This document shows positions 19,029-26,181 of a stretch of 64,000 nt of DNA, one piece after another. Below the pieces are notes generated by a model. That model searched no databases and had not been told where the DNA came from. It saw only the letters and a list, made by a program, of their open reading frames with translations. The DNA is taken from NCBI GenBank assembly GCA_964522395.1, contig CAZFVN010000007.1, forward strand, positions 25 through 64,024, read 5' to 3'. The position numbers and the translations under genes were made by a program. Positions within the stretch are counted from its first letter, which is position 1. The number at the start of each line of letters is the position of its first letter. Source of the DNA: an uncultured Myxococcales bacterium. Its GTDB lineage: Bacteria > Myxococcota_A > UBA9042 > CAIXZC01.

Positions 19029-19057
19029 TTGACATTCCTGCGGCTACCTGTTAGAAA
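19029..19057 (+). promoter_or_regulatory. Possible sigma70 promoter of the NtrC-family regulator operon
   Basis: TTGACA(19029-34)-17 bp-TAGAAA. Confidence 0.45.
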
Positions 19058-19083
19058 TCTGACAGTCTCTGGGAGGGAGTGCT

Positions 19084-20481
19084 GTGGCGCTTGATTATAG
19101 CAGATACCCGATATTGGTTGTCGACGACGAGGAGGATAACCTCGTTGCCTTTGAGATGACCTTTGGTGATACCTTCAAGCTGCTGACGGCCTCGTCAGGT
19201 GAGTTGGCCTTGGAGATACTCCGCAAGCAGACTGTTTCGGTGATGGTGGTTGATCAGCGTATGCCTGGCATGACCGGCACAGAGTTGCTGGCCGGGGCAG
19301 CGGCCATCGCCCCCGACGCAGTTGGGATTCTGCTCACTGCCTATCGCGATATTGACGTCATCATATCGGCTCTCCACTCCGGTCGCGTATATCGCTACTT
19401 GCAGAAGCCCTGGGATGCTCGAGAGGTTGAAGTGGTGCTCAGGCAGGCCATCGAACGACATGCCATGGCGGCGGAGAACCGTCGTCTCAATCGTCGGCTT
19501 CAGGAGTTGTCCAACTATCTTGGGCGTGAGGTCGATTCCCGGTACAACTACGGTGAAATGGTAGGGGATTCGACTCCCTTGCAAGAGGTACATGCGGTGA
19601 TCCGCAAGGTCGCTCCAACGAAGGCCACCGTACTCATTTCTGGGGAGAGTGGAACGGGCAAGGAATTGGCCGCCAGAGCCATTCACCATCAGAGCTCCCG
19701 CAAGGGTGGCCCCTTTGTTCGAGTCAATCTGGCGGCGCTGCCGGCCACACTCATAGAGAGTGAGCTTTTTGGCCACGAGAAGGGTGCTTTCACCGGTGCG
19801 GTTGCACAGAAGCTAGGTCGTTTTGAGCTGGCTCACGGAGGCACGCTCTTCCTCGACGAGATTGGAGATCTCCCGCTGGAGACGCAGATAAAGCTGCTGC
19901 GTGTCATTCAGGAGAAGGAGTTTGAGCGAGTCGGCGGCACGGAAACGGTGCAAGTGGACGTTCGCCTTATCGCGGCGACCAATAAGAACCTTGAAGAGTT
20001 GGTACAAGGGGGGGCTTTTCGTGAGGATCTGTACTACCGCGTCCGGGTCTTCCCCATTGAAATCCCACCCCTCAGGGACCGAGTGGATGACATCCCCAAG
20101 CTGGCCCACCATTTTCTCCACCAGCTCTCGGGCGGTGATGGCAGTACGGTGGAACTTGGCCCCGATTCTCTGGCTCGCTTGACCGCCTACCACTGGCCTG
20201 GCAACGTTCGGGAACTGGAAAACGCCATGGAGCGGGCGCTGATTCTGGCAGAGGACGAAGTCGTCCGGGCGGAAGATCTGGCTTTTCTGGAGGTCGACCG
20301 GAGCCAACCGAAGCTGCCCCTCAATGCCAGCCTCGATGTGGTGCTCGGTACTATGGAGAAGCACCAGCTTCAGGAGGCGTTGGCCCGTCACGACGGCTCG
20401 GTCAGTGCAATGGCACGGGAACTCGGCCTCAATCGGACTACTCTCTACTATCGACTCAAGAAATACGGACTGATGACATGA
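19084..20481 (+). CDS. Sigma54-dependent response regulator (NtrC/AtoC family: REC-AAA+-HTH)
   Basis: VVDDEED..VVDQRMPGM receiver; GESGTGKE Walker A; GAFTGA; LFLDEIGD; WPGNVRELEN; Fis-type HTH. No cognate kinase in the window. Confidence 0.93.
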   Translation: MALDYSRYPILVVDDEEDNLVAFEMTFGDTFKLLTASSGELALEILRKQTVSVMVVDQRMPGMTGTELLAGAAAIAPDAVGILLTAYRDIDVIISALHSGRVYRYLQKPWDAREVEVVLRQAIERHAMAAENRRLNRRLQELSNYLGREVDSRYNYGEMVGDSTPLQEVHAVIRKVAPTKATVLISGESGTGKELAARAIHHQSSRKGGPFVRVNLAALPATLIESELFGHEKGAFTGAVAQKLGRFELAHGGTLFLDEIGDLPLETQIKLLRVIQEKEFERVGGTETVQVDVRLIAATNKNLEELVQGGAFREDLYYRVRVFPIEIPPLRDRVDDIPKLAHHFLHQLSGGDGSTVELGPDSLARLTAYHWPGNVRELENAMERALILAEDEVVRAEDLAFLEVDRSQPKLPLNASLDVVLGTMEKHQLQEALARHDGSVSAMARELGLNRTTLYYRLKKYGLMT

Positions 20482-20843
20482 AGGTTGAACTGCGTAAGAG
20501 TTTCCGTTTTGAAGCGGCCCACCATCTTCCCTTTGCACCTGAGGGGCATCGCTGTCGTCAGGTTCACGGTCATGGCTACGTCGTCGAGGTGGTAGTGGAG
20601 GGGGAAATCGACCCTGTGCACCGCTGGCTCGTGGACTATGGAGAGATTCTGCGACTTTGTGAACCAATAAAGGCACAACTTGACCACAAGCTGGTCAATG
20701 AGATTCCGGGGCTCGAATCTGGCACCGCCGAGGACCTCTCGATCTTCGTTTGGAACGGTCTCAAGCCACGGCTTCCTCAACTGACGGCGGTAATTGTACG
20801 AGAGACGGACACGTCGTCATGCACCTATCGAGGGGAGGCGTAA
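20478..20843 (+). CDS. queD: 6-carboxy-5,6,7,8-tetrahydropterin synthase
   Basis: FEAAHHLP, CRQVHGHGY, LDHKLVNEIPGL, TAE, V.VRETDTS; ATGA overlap with the regulator stop. Confidence 0.88.
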   Translation: MKVELRKSFRFEAAHHLPFAPEGHRCRQVHGHGYVVEVVVEGEIDPVHRWLVDYGEILRLCEPIKAQLDHKLVNEIPGLESGTAEDLSIFVWNGLKPRLPQLTAVIVRETDTSSCTYRGEA

Positions 20844-20885: not shown

Positions 20886-22880
20886 GTGATGGATTCATCG
20901 CCGCAAAAGAGACTTTTTGGCGATGGAATTCTGGCTCGTGAGGCTGGTTTTGATGACGCCGAAGTGACCGTGCCCGACAACCTGCCTTCGCTCGCCGTGG
21001 GGAGCGTTTGGGATGGGCCCGTGGGGGCGCTGCTCTTCGCTGTTGCGGGCCTCTTCTACTTGATTCACACGGGTCCAAATTCCTTTTGGCTCGATTCCGC
21101 TGAGTTTGTTACTACCGGACACGGAGTAGGAGTAGCTCACCCCCCCGGTACTCCGCTTTACGTGCTGTTCTCGGCTCTCTTCGCCCGCTTTCCCCTTGGT
21201 GCGGCCACTTTTCGACTTCACCTGATGAATGTTCTCATCGGTGCCGGAGCGGTTGTAGTTGTCTATCGTGTCGGGCTGTTGGTGGTGCGGCGTGCGGGGT
21301 TGTCAGGAGTACCCTCCCTGGTTGCGGCAACGAGTGTGGCAGCAGCAACTGCGCTCAACGCCGGGCTCTGGTTCCATGCAGTGCGGGCCGAAGTCTACGC
21401 CCTGAATATTCTCCTCTGCCTGGCCATCGTCTGGTGTACCTTGTTGTGGGAGGAGCGCCCGCAAGGCTCCCGTTATCTTCTGCTCATCGCCCTGCTGGGG
21501 GGCTTGGGGCTGGCCAATCACCACCTGCTTACGGGCCTGACCGGCCTGGTCTGCCTGGGCTACGCCGCGACCCACAAAGAGATGCGAAAGTGCTTGTTTT
21601 TCAGGTACCTGCCCGTTGCGGTGGCGCTCTTTGCCGGGGGACTGTTGACCTACCTGTATCTGCCTATTCGATCCGCCGATGGTTGGCGGATGTGGGGCGA
21701 TGCCGGTAGCCTTTCCGGCTTCCTGGAGATGGTCTCGGCACGCGCCTTCCACATTAGCGTAACCGATTCTCCCAAGGCTCCACTGATGGTGGCCCTCATA
21801 ACAATTTTCGACAGTTGGCTGGGGCTCATGGGCCTACCCCTCGTGGTGGCCTCTGTCGCCGGTCTCTGTGCCCTCCTGGCCATGCGCCGTCGGGAGGCCT
21901 TGCTCCTGCTCGGGCTTGCCCTGGCTGGTGCGCTCTCCAAGGCCATCATGTATCTGGACGTAGAGAACCCCGACGACCACGCCTATTTCCTCATCGGCAT
22001 GGTGGCCCTCTCTCTGGCTGCGGTCGGTCTGGCGGCCGCCCCACGTTGGCTGCGGCTGCGCGGGAGAGTGGCTCCCTGGCTCGGGGCAACCGTGGTGGCC
22101 GGAGTGGCGCTAGTGAACGTCTTCTTGCTCTATCAGGCCAACAATCAACGGTGCGACCTCTCCCGTTTTCACGGGCCAGACTCGCTCAATCGTCACTTCC
22201 ACGAGCGAGTGCCCCCCGATGCGCTCTTCATGCCCAGCTACTACGCGACCTTCTTCAACCACCTTCTCTTCCGCTCGGTGGAGCAGCGGCGACCTGACCT
22301 TCTGATGGTACACCAATCCCTCTACTCAAGATTCGGCAAAGGAGTCGCCTACGCCGCAGACATCAGTAAGAAGCACCCTGACGCAGCCCCGCTTTTCGCC
22401 GAATTTCTCGAAGCGGGAGGATTCCCCCTCGAAGCTCTAGTCGAGTTGGCTCGATCGCGGGAGGTTCTCCTGGAAAACGATACCGTCGCCGTGACGCTGG
22501 ACGTCCCCTATTTGCAGCAGTTCACTCTGGGCGACGGCGGACTGCCGCTTGCGGCCGATGACCTGGCCTTCGACGGCCCCGGTGTGCTCTATAATGTCCC
22601 CCCACGAGTAGGCTGGAACGAAGGAGCACTCCAACAGGAGTTCTGGACCGGTTTCTACGAGGACCTGGGCACCGTTGGTGGAATCCACGCTGAGTTGTCA
22701 AAGCTCCTTGTCTGGTATCACTATCGCAACGCACTCTTCTTCGTTAACCGGCAGTCGCCCCGTCGCGCACTCCTCGAGGTGAAGCTTGCCCGACAGTTGA
22801 AACCTGACTTTGAGCGCCTGATTGAATTTGAAAACGCTCTAGTTTCGCCGCCAAGTGTAGAAAATATCATCACTCACTGA
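20886..22880 (+). CDS. DUF2723 / TMEM260-like multi-pass membrane protein (GT-C glycosyltransferase-like)
   Basis: FWLDSAEF, GVAHPPGTPLY, AEVYALN, GLGLANHHL, YLYLPIRS motifs; many TM helices; exact start uncertain. Confidence 0.75.
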   Translation: MMDSSPQKRLFGDGILAREAGFDDAEVTVPDNLPSLAVGSVWDGPVGALLFAVAGLFYLIHTGPNSFWLDSAEFVTTGHGVGVAHPPGTPLYVLFSALFARFPLGAATFRLHLMNVLIGAGAVVVVYRVGLLVVRRAGLSGVPSLVAATSVAAATALNAGLWFHAVRAEVYALNILLCLAIVWCTLLWEERPQGSRYLLLIALLGGLGLANHHLLTGLTGLVCLGYAATHKEMRKCLFFRYLPVAVALFAGGLLTYLYLPIRSADGWRMWGDAGSLSGFLEMVSARAFHISVTDSPKAPLMVALITIFDSWLGLMGLPLVVASVAGLCALLAMRRREALLLLGLALAGALSKAIMYLDVENPDDHAYFLIGMVALSLAAVGLAAAPRWLRLRGRVAPWLGATVVAGVALVNVFLLYQANNQRCDLSRFHGPDSLNRHFHERVPPDALFMPSYYATFFNHLLFRSVEQRRPDLLMVHQSLYSRFGKGVAYAADISKKHPDAAPLFAEFLEAGGFPLEALVELARSREVLLENDTVAVTLDVPYLQQFTLGDGGLPLAADDLAFDGPGVLYNVPPRVGWNEGALQQEFWTGFYEDLGTVGGIHAELSKLLVWYHYRNALFFVNRQSPRRALLEVKLARQLKPDFERLIEFENALVSPPSVENIITH

Positions 22881-22956
22881 TCTGCGTGTCTTGATTGTGG
22901 CTTGAAATTGTCCCCTGATTGGCCCATTGAGGGTCGCAAGTGCGCATCCATGGCCG

Positions 22957-22973
22957 TTGGCACGGGCTTTGCT
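22957..22973 (+). promoter_or_regulatory. sigma54 (-24/-12) promoter
   Basis: TTGGCACGGGCTTTGCT matches YTGGCACGRNNNTTGCW; GG 22959-60 and GC 22971-72 are exactly 10 bp apart. Confidence 0.8.
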
Positions 22974-22983
22974 TTAGAGAGAA

Positions 22984-23117
22984 GACAGGTTTGACAATTG
23001 AACACGTTTCGGAGGTGCCCCTCCTTCCAGCCTTCGAAACGCTTCCTCCTTCCAAGGTGAGATTGCGACCTAGCTACCGAGGGCCGAGAGCGGCAACGTT
23101 CTCGGCCCTCACCTTTT
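22984..23117 (+). ncRNA. Candidate sigma54-dependent small RNA with duplicated C-rich motifs
   Basis: Lies between the sigma54 promoter and a terminator; 11-bp stem 23005-23015/23031-23041 with C/U loop; CCTCCTTCCA at 23020-29 and 23045-54; no ATG-started ORF. Confidence 0.6.
23079..23117 (+). terminator. Rho-independent terminator
   Basis: 14-bp stem GAGGGCCGAGAGCG/CGTTCTCGGCCCTC with GCAA tetraloop, followed by ACCTTTT. Confidence 0.75.
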
Positions 23118-23125
23118 AAAGGCAA

Positions 23126-23893
23126 TCAGATTTCGCCTTCCACTGAACCGGTCACAAACTGGCGCACCACAGAATCATTGCTGTCGAAGAAGTCGTCCGC
23201 TGAACCGTGAAAACGGACCCGGCCATCAAAGAGGAAGAGCACGTCGTCCGCCAGGCGCCGGATAGAGCGCAGGTCATGCGAGATTATCAGTAGGGTTACA
23301 CCGGTCTCCAGGAGAACCTCAACTTGCTGGTCCAACTTGTAGGCGGCATTTGGGTCAAGCCCGGTGGTCGGTTCGTCGAGAATCAGCACGTCTGGCTCCA
23401 GAGCCAGGGCGCGGGCCAGCGAGACCAGCTTCTGATCCCCGGATGGGAGGCGTGTGGGCTTGCTTCGAGTGACACGACCCAGGCCCATCTTCACGAGCTG
23501 GTCGTTAGCCTTGACCTCGGCCGCCTCCGGCGTGAGGCCGAGGTGGTACTTCATCACCACCGCAACGTTTTCGGAAACCGTCATGGAATCGAAAAGGGTG
23601 GGGTGCTGGAAAACATAGACACATCTCTTGCGCAGTTCGAGCAACTCCTCTTCCGACAGGAGATCAACCCGATTCTTGCCGAGGTAAACCTCGCCGCGAT
23701 CGGGCTGTAGCAACCCCACCAGGTGCCTTACCAGGACACTCTTCCCGGTGCCCGACGGGCCAGCGACGAATGAGCATCTGCCCGCTGGAAATGTGGCGTC
23801 GACTCCGCGCAATACGTGGTTATCTCCGAAAGATTTCTCCAGCCCAACGATTCGGGCAGCGGGTATCGTTGACCCGGTTCTCTTGCCACTCAT
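23126..23893 (-). CDS. MlaF-like ABC ATPase (degenerate signature motif)
   Basis: Walker A GPSGTGKS, FQ Q-loop, signature LPSGD, Walker B LILDE, SHD switch. Confidence 0.85.
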   Translation of the reverse strand: MSGKRTGSTIPAARIVGLEKSFGDNHVLRGVDATFPAGRCSFVAGPSGTGKSVLVRHLVGLLQPDRGEVYLGKNRVDLLSEEELLELRKRCVYVFQHPTLFDSMTVSENVAVVMKYHLGLTPEAAEVKANDQLVKMGLGRVTRSKPTRLPSGDQKLVSLARALALEPDVLILDEPTTGLDPNAAYKLDQQVEVLLETGVTLLIISHDLRSIRRLADDVLFLFDGRVRFHGSADDFFDSNDSVVRQFVTGSVEGEI

Positions 23894-24621
23894 AAGAGCA
23901 CCTCGCCGACATAGGAGAGGATGGCATCAAGGAGGATTACTGCGAACGATGAGATGACTACGGCTTTTGTCGTCGCCTGGCCAACTCCCTCGGAGCCCTC
24001 GTCGGCTTCGAAACCACAGGCGCAACTGACCAGCGGCACCGTGAAACCGAAAGTGACGCTCTTGGCGATCCCAATCAGCAAGTCCCCTTCGCGTACGAAT
24101 CTCAGGGAGAGGTAGGTGTCGGGCAGAATGGAGAAACCGAACCACGCCACCAACATGCCCACAAAATAGGCGATTGCGGTGCCGAGTGCGGCCAGGGCGA
24201 CCCCGGCCAGGGTTGCGGCAATCAGCCGCGGCAGCACGAGCAACTCGATAGGGTCGACGGCGTTGAGTTTCATCGCCTCGAGCTGGTCGGTTACCTTCAT
24301 TGAGCCAAGCTCGGCGGCCATTCCTGTGCCCACTCGAGTGGCCAGCAGCAGGCCCGCCATTACCGGCCCCAGTTCACGAGTGAGGCCCTGCAAGACGGCC
24401 CCGCCCAGGGTGGAGTATTCCGGTAGTACCCGCGCCATGGTCGAGGCCAATTGGTAGACACCGATCATGCCGATGAAGGCCATTGTAACGGAGACGAAGA
24501 GAACCGAGCGGTTGCCCGCCTCATAGAACTGACGGAGGATTTCACGGGGCTTGACGCGCAAGCGGACCAACGACCAGAGCGAAAGGGAAAAAAGTTCGAA
24601 CATGCGGTAATAGAGCGTCAC
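23890..24621 (-). CDS. MlaE-family ABC permease
   Basis: RELGPVMAGLLLATRVGTGMAAELGSMKVTDQLEA..LVLPR; GVGQATTKAVV. Confidence 0.88.
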   Translation of the reverse strand: MTLYYRMFELFSLSLWSLVRLRVKPREILRQFYEAGNRSVLFVSVTMAFIGMIGVYQLASTMARVLPEYSTLGGAVLQGLTRELGPVMAGLLLATRVGTGMAAELGSMKVTDQLEAMKLNAVDPIELLVLPRLIAATLAGVALAALGTAIAYFVGMLVAWFGFSILPDTYLSLRFVREGDLLIGIAKSVTFGFTVPLVSCACGFEADEGSEGVGQATTKAVVISSFAVILLDAILSYVGEVLL

Positions 24622-24625
24622 TCGA

Positions 24626-25408
24626 CTATCCGTACACGATGTTGATCCAGGCCCAGGTGATAATATAATCAGAGACGAAGATGCCTAGCGCGGTGGCCAC
24701 GACGCAACCATTGACGGCGTTGCCAACTCCCCGTGCGCCGCCCCGAACCGCCAGCCCGTAAGTAGTACTGCAAATAGAGATGACGATGCCGAAGAAGAAT
24801 GCCTTCACGAGGCCCGCGATGAACGCATCAAGAAGCTCAGCCTCCAGCAGACCCGCGACGAATGTCCGCCAATCAATTCCCAGGAGCCAATGGGCCGTGG
24901 AGGCCCCGCCGATGATGCCGAATAGATCGCCGACTAGCGTCAATGCCACCAGGGAAATGCAGATGGCGACGAAGCGGGGGGCCACCAAGAACTTCACCGG
25001 GTCGATAGCCAGTGCGCGTAGCGCATCGATTTGTTCCGAAACCACCATATTACCGAGCTCTGCTGCGGCGTTGGCGCCGACACGACCAGAGAACATCAGT
25101 CCGATGAGAGTTGGACCCAACTCCGCCAGTACCGCCAGGCCGGAGCCAGAGCCGACAAAGGAAGTGGCTCCAGTGGCCCGCACGTAGCTCATTGTCTGGA
25201 GTACCATGATAACCCCTACGAGAAAGGCGGTAAGGGTGACGATGGGCAGGGAAAGAAAGCCGATGCGATAGAGCTGGCGCCAAACCTCAGCGCCGTCGAG
25301 ACGGGGTGGAATCAGTGCTCTAACGACGCGATAGAAGGTGATATTGAGGGCCCCCAGGATCTCCAGAGTAGCCAGAACTTCCCGGCCGATGGCAGCGAAC
25401 AGTCTCAC
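24626..25408 (-). CDS. MlaE-family ABC permease
   Basis: ELGPTLIGLMFSGRVGANAAAELGNMVVSEQIDALRALAIDP..LVAPR; GVGNAVNGCVV. Confidence 0.88.
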   Translation of the reverse strand: MRLFAAIGREVLATLEILGALNITFYRVVRALIPPRLDGAEVWRQLYRIGFLSLPIVTLTAFLVGVIMVLQTMSYVRATGATSFVGSGSGLAVLAELGPTLIGLMFSGRVGANAAAELGNMVVSEQIDALRALAIDPVKFLVAPRFVAICISLVALTLVGDLFGIIGGASTAHWLLGIDWRTFVAGLLEAELLDAFIAGLVKAFFFGIVISICSTTYGLAVRGGARGVGNAVNGCVVATALGIFVSDYIITWAWINIVYG

Positions 25409-26181
25409 GACCCTTGAACCTCCCGCTGCGGCTCAGTCGCGGCGAAGACAAAATCCCGGATGACCGGGCGCGCACAGTCATATACCTCTTCCTGGAGTCC
25501 GTCATAGAGAACCTGGCCGTCAAATAGACCGACGAGGCGAGTCACGACTGGAAAGAGACGCTGCAGGTCGTGGGTGGCGATTACCACCAATGAATGCGCC
25601 TCCTCTGCATAGGCAGAGAGCATTCGCATGATCTTCGCTGAGTTTACCGGGTCAAGTCCGGCAACCGGGTCATCAAAGAACGCGATGTCGGGGCGAGCAG
25701 CCATTACTCGGGCGATGGCCACTCGGCGCCTCATACCGCCCGAAAGCGCCTCGGGCGACGTCCCCTGGGTGCCGTCCATACCCACTTTGGCGAGAACCTC
25801 CGCTACCCTCTGGTCCACCTCGTGTGCCGGCATCGTGGAGCCCTGGTCGAGGGAGAATCCCACGTTCTCCCGGACGTTCAGAAAGTCGAAGAGAGCGAAG
25901 TTTTGAAACTGCAAACTGATGCGGGCACGGGCTGCCGCCAGGACTCTGCGGTTGAGACGTGAGATACGTTCACCGAATAGTTCAATCGAGCCTCGTTGCG
26001 GAAAGCGTAGAGTGGCCATGGATTTGAGGAGCTGCGTTTTGCCACTTCCACCGGGGCCAAAGAGCCCTACTACTTCGCCGGGGTCAAAGGAGAGCGTGAC
26101 ATCGTCCAGCACGATGCGCCGACCATAGCGAAGAGTTACGCCGTCGAGACGGACCAGATGGGAGTCCGGAATCGTGTCCAA
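25405..26181 (-). CDS. MlaF-like ABC ATPase (Walker B catalytic Glu replaced by Asp)
   Basis: Walker A GPGGSGKT, FQ Q-loop, signature LSGGM, Walker B AFFDD, THD switch. Confidence 0.85.
   Translation of the reverse strand: MDTIPDSHLVRLDGVTLRYGRRIVLDDVTLSFDPGEVVGLFGPGGSGKTQLLKSMATLRFPQRGSIELFGERISRLNRRVLAAARARISLQFQNFALFDFLNVRENVGFSLDQGSTMPAHEVDQRVAEVLAKVGMDGTQGTSPEALSGGMRRRVAIARVMAARPDIAFFDDPVAGLDPVNSAKIMRMLSAYAEEAHSLVVIATHDLQRLFPVVTRLVGLFDGQVLYDGLQEEVYDCARPVIRDFVFAATEPQREVQGS

Follow-up and report, generated by a model that had tools for sequence, protein, structure and literature searches.

The 64-kb window analysed here is a stretch of 64,000 nucleotides (positions 25 to 64,024, forward strand, of contig CAZFVN010000007.1 in assembly GCA_964522395.1) from an uncultured Myxococcales bacterium, the source being a metagenome-assembled genome (MAG) of 5.35 Mb in 219 contigs, 88% complete and with 58% G+C. 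Our subject is a short interval on its plus strand, 22984-23117, which very probably encodes a conserved, uncatalogued, sigma54-promoted and structured non-coding RNA gene. This predicted small RNA (sRNA) gene lies directly behind a three-gene operon that begins with a bacterial enhancer-binding protein (bEBP), and in front of a convergent Mla-type ABC operon. The features of the locus, in window positions, are as follows.

19084-20481, plus strand: NtrC-family REC-AAA+-HTH enhancer-binding protein (bEBP), first gene of the bEBP-QueD-like-TMEM260-like operon
20478-20843, plus strand: QueD/PTPS-like gene, whose start overlaps the bEBP stop (ATGA at 20478-20481)
20889-22880, plus strand: TMEM260-like (PF11028) membrane protein gene, glycosyltransferase-like, with the sRNA gene directly 3'
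22856-22872: UAS-1, a candidate enhancer, palindrome TGTAGAAAATATCATCA with consensus TGTRGA-N5-TCYACA, overlapping the last TMEM260-like codons
22909-22926: second conserved upstream element, TGTC-N10-(GACA), read by eye
22958-22973, plus strand: sigma54 (-24/-12) promoter TGGCACGGGCTTTGCT, a perfect consensus match, kept in all 16 homologs
22984-23117, plus strand: predicted sRNA transcript of about 134 nt, its 5' end taken from promoter geometry and its 3' end from the terminator
22988-22999, plus strand: 5' arm of the closing helix P1, GGUUUGACAAUU, pairing with 23061-23071
23005-23041, plus strand: hairpin P2, whose 13-nt loop (23017-23029) shows motif 1
23020-23028, plus strand: motif 1, CCUCCUUCC, in the P2 loop
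23043-23058, plus strand: motif 2, UUCCUCCUUCCAAGGU, in the unpaired junction that links P2 to the 3' arm of P1
23061-23071, plus strand: 3' arm of P1, GAUUGCGACCU, partner of the arm at 22988-22999
23079-23117, plus strand: terminator hairpin of 14 bp with a GCAA loop (stem 23079-23092 with 23097-23110), followed by ACCUUUU
23126-26181, convergent and downstream of the sRNA: Mla-type ABC operon, then methylmalonyl-CoA mutase

The element TTGGCACGGGCTTTGCT at 22957-22973 contains the core TGGCAC-N5-TTGCT, and nowhere else in the window is the sigma54 consensus matched perfectly. Across the 5.35-Mb genome the strict pattern is found 25 times, against approximately 10 occurrences expected by chance (a rough count), so a single match proves little. 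What lifts the locus above a chance match is that 16 homologs, nine from genomes of the same family and seven from metagenome contigs, share the promoter, the helices, and both motifs. The form TGGCA[CT]-N5-TTGC[AT] is perfect in all of them and keeps a constant spacing of 48 or 61-62 nt to motif 1, which follows it; since the promoter lay outside the covariance model used for the search, its conservation is independent of that model. This conservation is the strongest argument that the RNA would be transcribed from a sigma54 promoter. The genome also encodes RpoN (a 479-codon open reading frame (ORF) on contig C5 with the RpoN box ARRTVAKYR), and a simple scan of 22700-23300 found no sigma70-like promoter. 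The initial annotation, made from the letters of the window, had proposed an unannotated sigma54-dependent sRNA behind a promoter at 22957-73; the sequence features it described all lie where it had placed them, and both the promoter and the call of a non-coding RNA are borne out, the transcript now being predicted at ~134 nt.

The homologs were collected in several ways. A BLASTN search of relatives recovered the region from the same genus, at 82% identity, and from two further genera. A covariance model built from four sequences and starting downstream of the promoter (R1) found one copy each in nine of the 13 family genomes, representing five of seven genera, and no further matches among 107 genomes of the class. 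Scanning metagenomes for the twin-motif pattern yielded 52 loci, of which R1 matches eight, one of them being the same contig as in genome G007; the other 44 are coding repeats or low-complexity sequence. The same pattern in genome contigs of other taxa gave no homolog and no sigma54 promoter among the at least 80 loci listed, and among at least 121 twin-motif matches listed in other taxa none has a sigma54 promoter. On metagenome contigs L168, L180, L182, and L218, twin CCTCCTTCC matches are often coding tandem repeats (for example, ...TPPSGGGTGT... units), so searches for anti-Shine-Dalgarno (anti-SD) sRNAs by motif only are dominated by such repeats. Conservation in syntenic relatives, on which the initial annotation had staked its call, was found, in the form of these 16 homologs. 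Throughout the family, the sRNA gene stands immediately 3' of the TMEM260-like gene in every genus.

Folded over 22984-23119, the plus strand reaches -55.1 kcal/mol (z = -5.2 relative to shuffled sequences), compared to z = -1.8 for the minus strand; these scores and the frequent G-U pairs place the RNA on the plus strand. The stem of P2 has 12 bp (23005-23016 with 23030-23041), including two G-U pairs, and shows compensatory changes in 9/12 pairs, with 92% of the alignment cells paired. P1 changes between clades from UUGACAAU/AUUGCGA (clade A) to GUGCAGCA/UGCUGCAC (clade B), and helix 2, given under P1, has compensatory changes in five of its eight pairs, likewise with 92% of cells paired. 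In the terminator hairpin, 99% of cells are paired and compensatory changes affect 9/12 pairs. Across the whole 16-sequence alignment (A4), 94.2% of cells hold standard pairs versus 39–52% when the partners are slid, and 25 of 34 pairs show compensatory changes, values reached by none of 500 shuffles, with the reservation that A4 was fitted to the covariance model, which inflates the pairing figures somewhat.

Both motifs are nearly invariant while the stems vary. The 10-mer CCTCCTTCCA is present twice, at 23020-23029 in the P2 loop and at 23045-23054 in unpaired sequence; the loop motif CCUCCUUCC is unchanged in 13 of the 16 homologs, and UCCUCCUUC of motif 2 is unchanged in all of them and also in the diverged copy of G006. 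A hairpin presenting a C/U loop and a repeated 10-mer had both been read from the window at the outset, and both hold, the former as a covarying 12-bp stem and the latter as one copy in the loop and an identical copy left unpaired. The terminator read at the same time held in part: the GCAA-capped 14-bp hairpin is present and covaries, and the U tract is weak, with four U. Just 3' of the sRNA in one homolog (L003:1636-1735, G007:C14), we also observed that the 3' half of the terminator and its tail, CCGGCCCTCAACC(C)TTTTCCACCCGCTCCCCATC, stand in three successive copies, as if the terminator arm had been duplicated locally in tandem. Overall, comparison among homologs can be taken to establish the promoter, the structure, the invariance of the motifs, the non-coding nature of the RNA, and its conserved place behind the TMEM260-like gene.

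The RNA belongs to no Rfam family, a check that the initial annotation had proposed. A scan at E <= 10 returned sub-threshold matches only, to ctRNA_pGA1 (driven by the terminator) and ar14 (driven by the motif), and the best of them, alpha-r14/cuckoo RF02344, scored 20.9 bits where the gathering threshold is 58.8 (E = 0.34). No description of the RNA turned up in a full-text literature search for CCUCCUUCC or in a search combining sigma-54 with anti-Shine-Dalgarno sRNA.

A sigma54 promoter raises the question of an enhancer. The UAS-1 palindrome is present with at most two mismatches in 12 of the 16 homologs versus 0.075 expected in shuffles, a contrast to which no probability is attached since the sequences are related. 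It lies 79–123 bp 5' of the -24 element, at positions near -80, -90, -101, -113, and -123, thus in steps of ~11 bp or roughly one helical turn. Its two halves co-vary, TGTAGA...TCTACA becoming TGTGGA...TCCACA, the left change being synonymous in the TMEM260-like gene and the right one replacing Tyr with His; that the palindrome changes in pairs despite this replacement suggests that the DNA is under selection here and not the protein. The last approximately seven TMEM260-like codons (V-E-N-I-I-T-H, 22856-22880) coincide with the palindrome, and the protein of genus g5 ends differently. Functions overlap at this place, since a probable enhancer lies over the last codons of a protein gene, and the C-terminus of that protein appears to have been shaped by the overlapping candidate DNA site. 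Genus g4 is without the palindrome, and a search in front of the genome's 24 remaining strict sigma54 promoters found no second copy.

Approximately 25–50 bp downstream of UAS-1 is the second element, TGTC-N10-GACA, which is palindromic in clade B (TGTCCTGCTTTCAGGACA in G002, TGTCTCGCTTCGGGGACA in L194) and a half-site in this genome, the TGTCC half being kept in clade A. Imperfect C(T/C)TGA repeats had initially been suggested as enhancer half-sites; the repeats exist, and are shared only with the same-genus genome, which leaves the TGTRGA-N5-TCYACA palindrome as the better enhancer candidate, judging from conservation. In one homolog (L036:1157-1330, G004:C508), two direct repeats of ~40 bp, CTGCAACCTGCAC[AG]CTGCCACCTCCC..., stand 5' of the sRNA promoter, directly before TGGCAC.

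The most obvious activator would be the product of the neighbouring bEBP gene at 19084-20481, which has Pfam and NCBIfam matches, none at an equivalog cut-off. The bEBP-QueD-like-TMEM260-like operon is kept in five of seven genera (g1, g3, g4, g5, and g6), so that pairing the bEBP with the sRNA, as the initial annotation had done, was reasonable. However, the two genes come apart in both directions, which argues against this bEBP as the conserved activator. On one hand, genus g2, represented by three genomes (up to 95% complete), and genus g7, by two (94% and 96%), have no ortholog of it by reciprocal best hits and synteny, yet they keep the QueD-like and TMEM260-like genes, the sRNA, and a perfect promoter. 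Both genera also keep the palindrome, the best palindromes being those of g2, and their closest bEBPs, 43–47% identical, are reciprocal best hits of other paralogs in this genome. On the other hand, g5 retains the bEBP operon, and behind its TMEM260-like gene we found neither a sigma54 promoter nor the UAS-1 palindrome, only a degenerate hairpin, CCCUCCAACCCUUCCAGCGG, and a terminator. At the two g5 loci, L297:1870-2000 (minus strand; G005:C112) and L296:700-831 (G009:C133), the hairpin is followed by AUCCCUCCAACCCUUCCAGCGG and then by a strong terminator; this unit may be related to the sRNA, in degenerate or re-wired form.

Reciprocal best hits and synteny thus led us to reject the 19084 bEBP as the conserved activator, and the activator is probably a protein other than the neighbouring one. 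That this bEBP nevertheless activates the RNA in this particular genome is conceivable but doubtful. For annotation more generally, a bEBP gene beside a sigma54 promoter is insufficient to assign the activator. Within the 48-nt gap before the operon, a sigma70-like TTGACA-N17-TAGAAA was read by eye at 19031-19059. The Mla-type operon on the other side of the sRNA (23126-26181) comprises two permease and two ATPase genes and is syntenic with the sRNA in g1, g3, g4, g6, and g7.

From the features described above we infer the ends of the transcript, enhancer binding, pairing with ribosome binding sites (RBSs), and the identity of the targets, and together they would compose a simple regulatory mechanism. 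RNA polymerase with sigma54 would transcribe the gene from 22958-22973, and, as this promoter type requires, transcription would depend on an enhancer-binding ATPase, which probably binds TGTRGA-N5-TCYACA ~100 bp upstream. In the predicted RNA, P1 would enclose P2, whose loop displays CCUCCUUCC, and the unpaired junction with the second copy, with the terminator hairpin following. Both motifs would pair with Shine-Dalgarno (SD) sequences of the GGAGG type (best fit GGAAGGAGG) in a set of mRNAs and block binding of the 30S subunit, so that a signal activating the enhancer-binding protein would repress the paired mRNAs. Sigma54 promoters are tightly off without their activator, and the RNA would consequently be an all-or-none translational switch. 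We assign a probability of roughly 0.6 to this full reading, a stand-alone sigma54 sRNA of ~134 nt that pairs with SD regions to block 30S binding, and consider RBS pairing, taken as a mechanism on its own, somewhat better than an even bet.

The motifs match the sequence of the anti-SD tail of 16S rRNA (CCUCCUU...); no 16S gene was found in this MAG. The genome has 92 copies of the 9-mer GGAAGGAGG, of which 26 sit 3–12 nt before the start codon of an ORF with 60 codons or more. Complementarity is longest at a gene for a Cys-rich lipoprotein (C51:10426, 15 nt) and at a gene for a Pal-like lipoprotein (C38:32400, 13 nt), with a further 14/15 nt at C62. The RBS of the first of these, a gene of 477 aa (G000:C51:10386-10428), has ACCTTGGAAGGAGGA, a perfect 15-nt complement of motif 2 and its flank; approximately 0.01 such matches would be expected by chance in the genome, and the orthologs in G001, G007, and G011 are without it. 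The case for RBS pairing is built on motif identity, on display in a loop and a junction, and on analogy with the cuckoo and NfeR1 RNAs (PMC4615179, PMC10746234), rather than on identified targets.

Several observations weigh against this reading. The extended complementarities at C51:10426 and C38:32400, the only two candidates tested, are not kept in orthologs, even within the genus, and only the generic GGAGG(A) core remains there. Genomes without the RNA have equally strong SDs, the window contains no local target, and the enrichment of lipoproteins among the candidates is weak (p = 0.04, uncorrected, with noisy gene calls). Hfq was not found by a simple motif search, which is a weak search in a genome that is 88% complete. 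At the 3' end, the four-U tract is missing in clade B, and a simple terminator scan made no call. Finally, a site bound by a protein would likewise be consistent with two copies that stay strictly invariant over 9–10 nt.

This last point leads to the main rival, in which the RNA would titrate a protein, as CrcZ, RsmZ, or GlmY do, the two CCUCCUUCC sites sequestering an RNA-binding protein with a preference for single-stranded, C/U-rich RNA (for example, a KH, cold-shock, or S1-like protein). Such a role would explain why two copies stay invariant and are displayed unpaired while everything else drifts, and why neither of the two tested candidates is a conserved mRNA partner; moreover, the sigma54-dependent sRNAs CrcZ and GlmY do act as decoys (PMC4063720, PMC7073468). 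Yet no candidate protein was identified, the RNA offers two sites only where known sponges carry many, and the motif is an anti-SD sequence with an obvious RNA partner. The cuckoo motif, which is equally invariant, is read by its authors as anti-SD-like (PMC4615179). We consider protein titration unlikely.

Very unlikely is that the locus is a structured 3' end of the TMEM260-like mRNA, such as a terminator region or an element of its 3' untranslated region (3'UTR), with the sigma54 match serving something else. Its constant position directly behind that gene in the family, the overlap of the upstream palindrome with the last codons, and the related hairpin and terminator that g5 retains without a sigma54 promoter would all be compatible with a 3'UTR. 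However, the perfect promoter keeps a fixed distance from P1 in every homolog, the motifs, P1, and P2 are conserved far beyond what a terminator needs, and in family f10 a related unit lies divergent from the start of a TMEM260-like gene, where it cannot be that gene's 3'UTR. A functional RNA on the minus strand is extremely unlikely: it would carry UGGAAGGAGG twice, as GGA motifs like those of CsrA/RsmA-binding sponges, and the reverse complement does have four GGA triplets, one set in a hairpin loop, but promoter and terminator both point along the plus strand, no promoter-like site was found for the opposite direction, many conserved G-U pairs would become A-C mismatches, and the minus-strand fold is no better than shuffles; we rejected it on the G-U pairs and the fold z-score. 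A small protein from the TTG ORF 22991-23119 or the GTG ORF 22940-23119 is scarcely credible and the coding reading was rejected, for although the frames are open over 42 and 59 codons in this genome, in-frame stops or frameshifting indels occur in G003, G007, G011, G004, G008, and G002 (the TTG frame being broken in at least six homologs), there is no SD before the frames and no Pfam match, and the conservation pattern follows helices, not codons.

Beyond the family, a second covariance model built from all 16 sequences (R2) recovered a diverged syntenic copy in G006 (genus g6), with motif 2 only and the promoter CGGCAT-N5-TTGCA, and weak full-length matches with sigma54 promoters in G034 (family f10, 29 bits) and G018 (family f7, 34.9 bits). 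These matches place diverged homologs in no fewer than two further families of the class, f7 and f10. In three f10 genomes, a unit of a sigma54 promoter and CCCUCCUUCC is divergent from the start of a TMEM260-like gene. Families f3 and f11 have other units of a sigma54 promoter and CCUCCUUC, with different bodies. The f3/f11 unit, found at L292 (G014:C6:107160-), L293 (G075:C561:2303-), and L294 (G022:C9:79316-), has sigma54-promoted GUGUGGUCAAACUCCCUCCUCCUUCCCUCCC... with a palindrome, TCTCAA-N-TTGAGA, upstream, and may be a second family of anti-SD sRNAs.

A sigma54 promoter followed within 20–60 nt by CCTCCTTC was counted 19 times in the class sample (five in the reversed control) and 21 times in 401 genomes of the phylum (one in the reversed control), and the matches need not all be sRNAs. 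In one genome of the same phylum, two sigma54 promoters (G276:C22:398-459 and G276:C329:4238-4299) are each followed by GGGGAAGGAGACUGCC...GGCAGUCCUCCUUC; in these copies the anti-SD-like stretch pairs with an SD-like stretch, a self-sequestered design. It is an improbable, speculative extension that the sRNA is one branch of an old class-wide, possibly phylum-wide, mimic of the 16S anti-SD sequence, gated by sigma54 and a bEBP and serving as a general brake on translation. If this were true, the RNA would compete with ribosomes for the strongest SD sites and so place the output of highly translated mRNAs, perhaps mRNAs of envelope proteins, under a single signal sensed through the enhancer. 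In at least two families the sRNA would be anchored to a TMEM260-like gene, lying behind it in f1 and diverging from its start in f10.

To our knowledge, sRNAs of uncultured deltaproteobacterial-type lineages are almost unknown, and Pxr is the single well-studied myxobacterial example. The new family is in a form that can be used, with a covariance model, at least 16 members, a defined promoter type, a structure, and two seeds. Among distant systems, RsaE/RoxS of Firmicutes pair with SD regions through duplicated C-rich seeds. The RNA described here shares the duplicated C-rich seeds, but differs from RsaE/RoxS in motif (CCCC there), promoter type, structure, and phylum, and has no Rfam match to them.

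The closest resemblance in mode of action is to the alpha-r14/cuckoo RNAs, which include CcsR1-4/RSs0680a-d in Rhodobacter and NfeR1/SmelC397 in Sinorhizobium (PMC4615179, PMC10746234). Cuckoo motifs have been described as anti-SD-like, and such motifs were proposed to mark sRNAs that repress translation by RBS pairing (PMC4615179). Both groups are short sRNAs with several invariant copies of a C/U-rich, anti-SD-like 9-mer and with varying stems, read as RBS-pairing repressors; the cuckoo model is the only one in Rfam with any resemblance, and the motifs align. However, the motif is CCUCCUCCC there and CCUCCUUCC here, and cuckoo RNAs have two to four adjacent hairpins with CCUCCUCCC in each loop and no multiloop (PMC4615179), whereas the RNA of the window has one motif in a loop and one in a junction, both enclosed by a covarying closing helix. 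In addition, Rhodobacter RSs0680a-d use an RpoHI/RpoHII-dependent promoter (PMC4615179) in place of sigma54, and cuckoo RNAs are found in Alphaproteobacteria, in contrast to the deltaproteobacterial-type lineage studied here.

In its transcription, the RNA resembles the sigma54-dependent sRNAs Qrr1-5/LuxO (Vibrio), CrcZ/CbrB (Pseudomonas), GlmY/GlrR (Enterobacteria), and Pxr (Myxococcus), with which it shares the -24/-12 promoter (PMC5568312, PMC7073468, PMC4063720). Further shared features are a candidate enhancer at a distance of ~100 bp and a short predicted RNA that stands alone and ends in a putative terminator; several genera also have a bEBP gene nearby. It differs from this class in that no sequence or structure match to them was found in Rfam, in a seed that is a double anti-SD mimic, and in a neighbouring bEBP that does not track the RNA. 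Pxr, of Myxococcus xanthus and other Cystobacterineae, is likewise a sigma54 sRNA 3' of a gene for a sigma54-dependent response regulator, in a deltaproteobacterial-type lineage (PMC5568312). Pxr has 108 nt and three stem-loops, and its gene is flanked by nla19 and an NADH dehydrogenase gene (PMC5568312); the RNA of the window, compared by description, has a predicted ~134 nt folded as P1, P2, and terminator, and lies between the TMEM260-like gene and the Mla-type ABC operon, and the Rfam scan gave no match to Pxr. Very probably, this is a real, conserved, uncatalogued gene for a regulator of an already known type. It would bring enhancer-dependent sigma54 transcription together with anti-SD mimicry, each of which is familiar from other systems.

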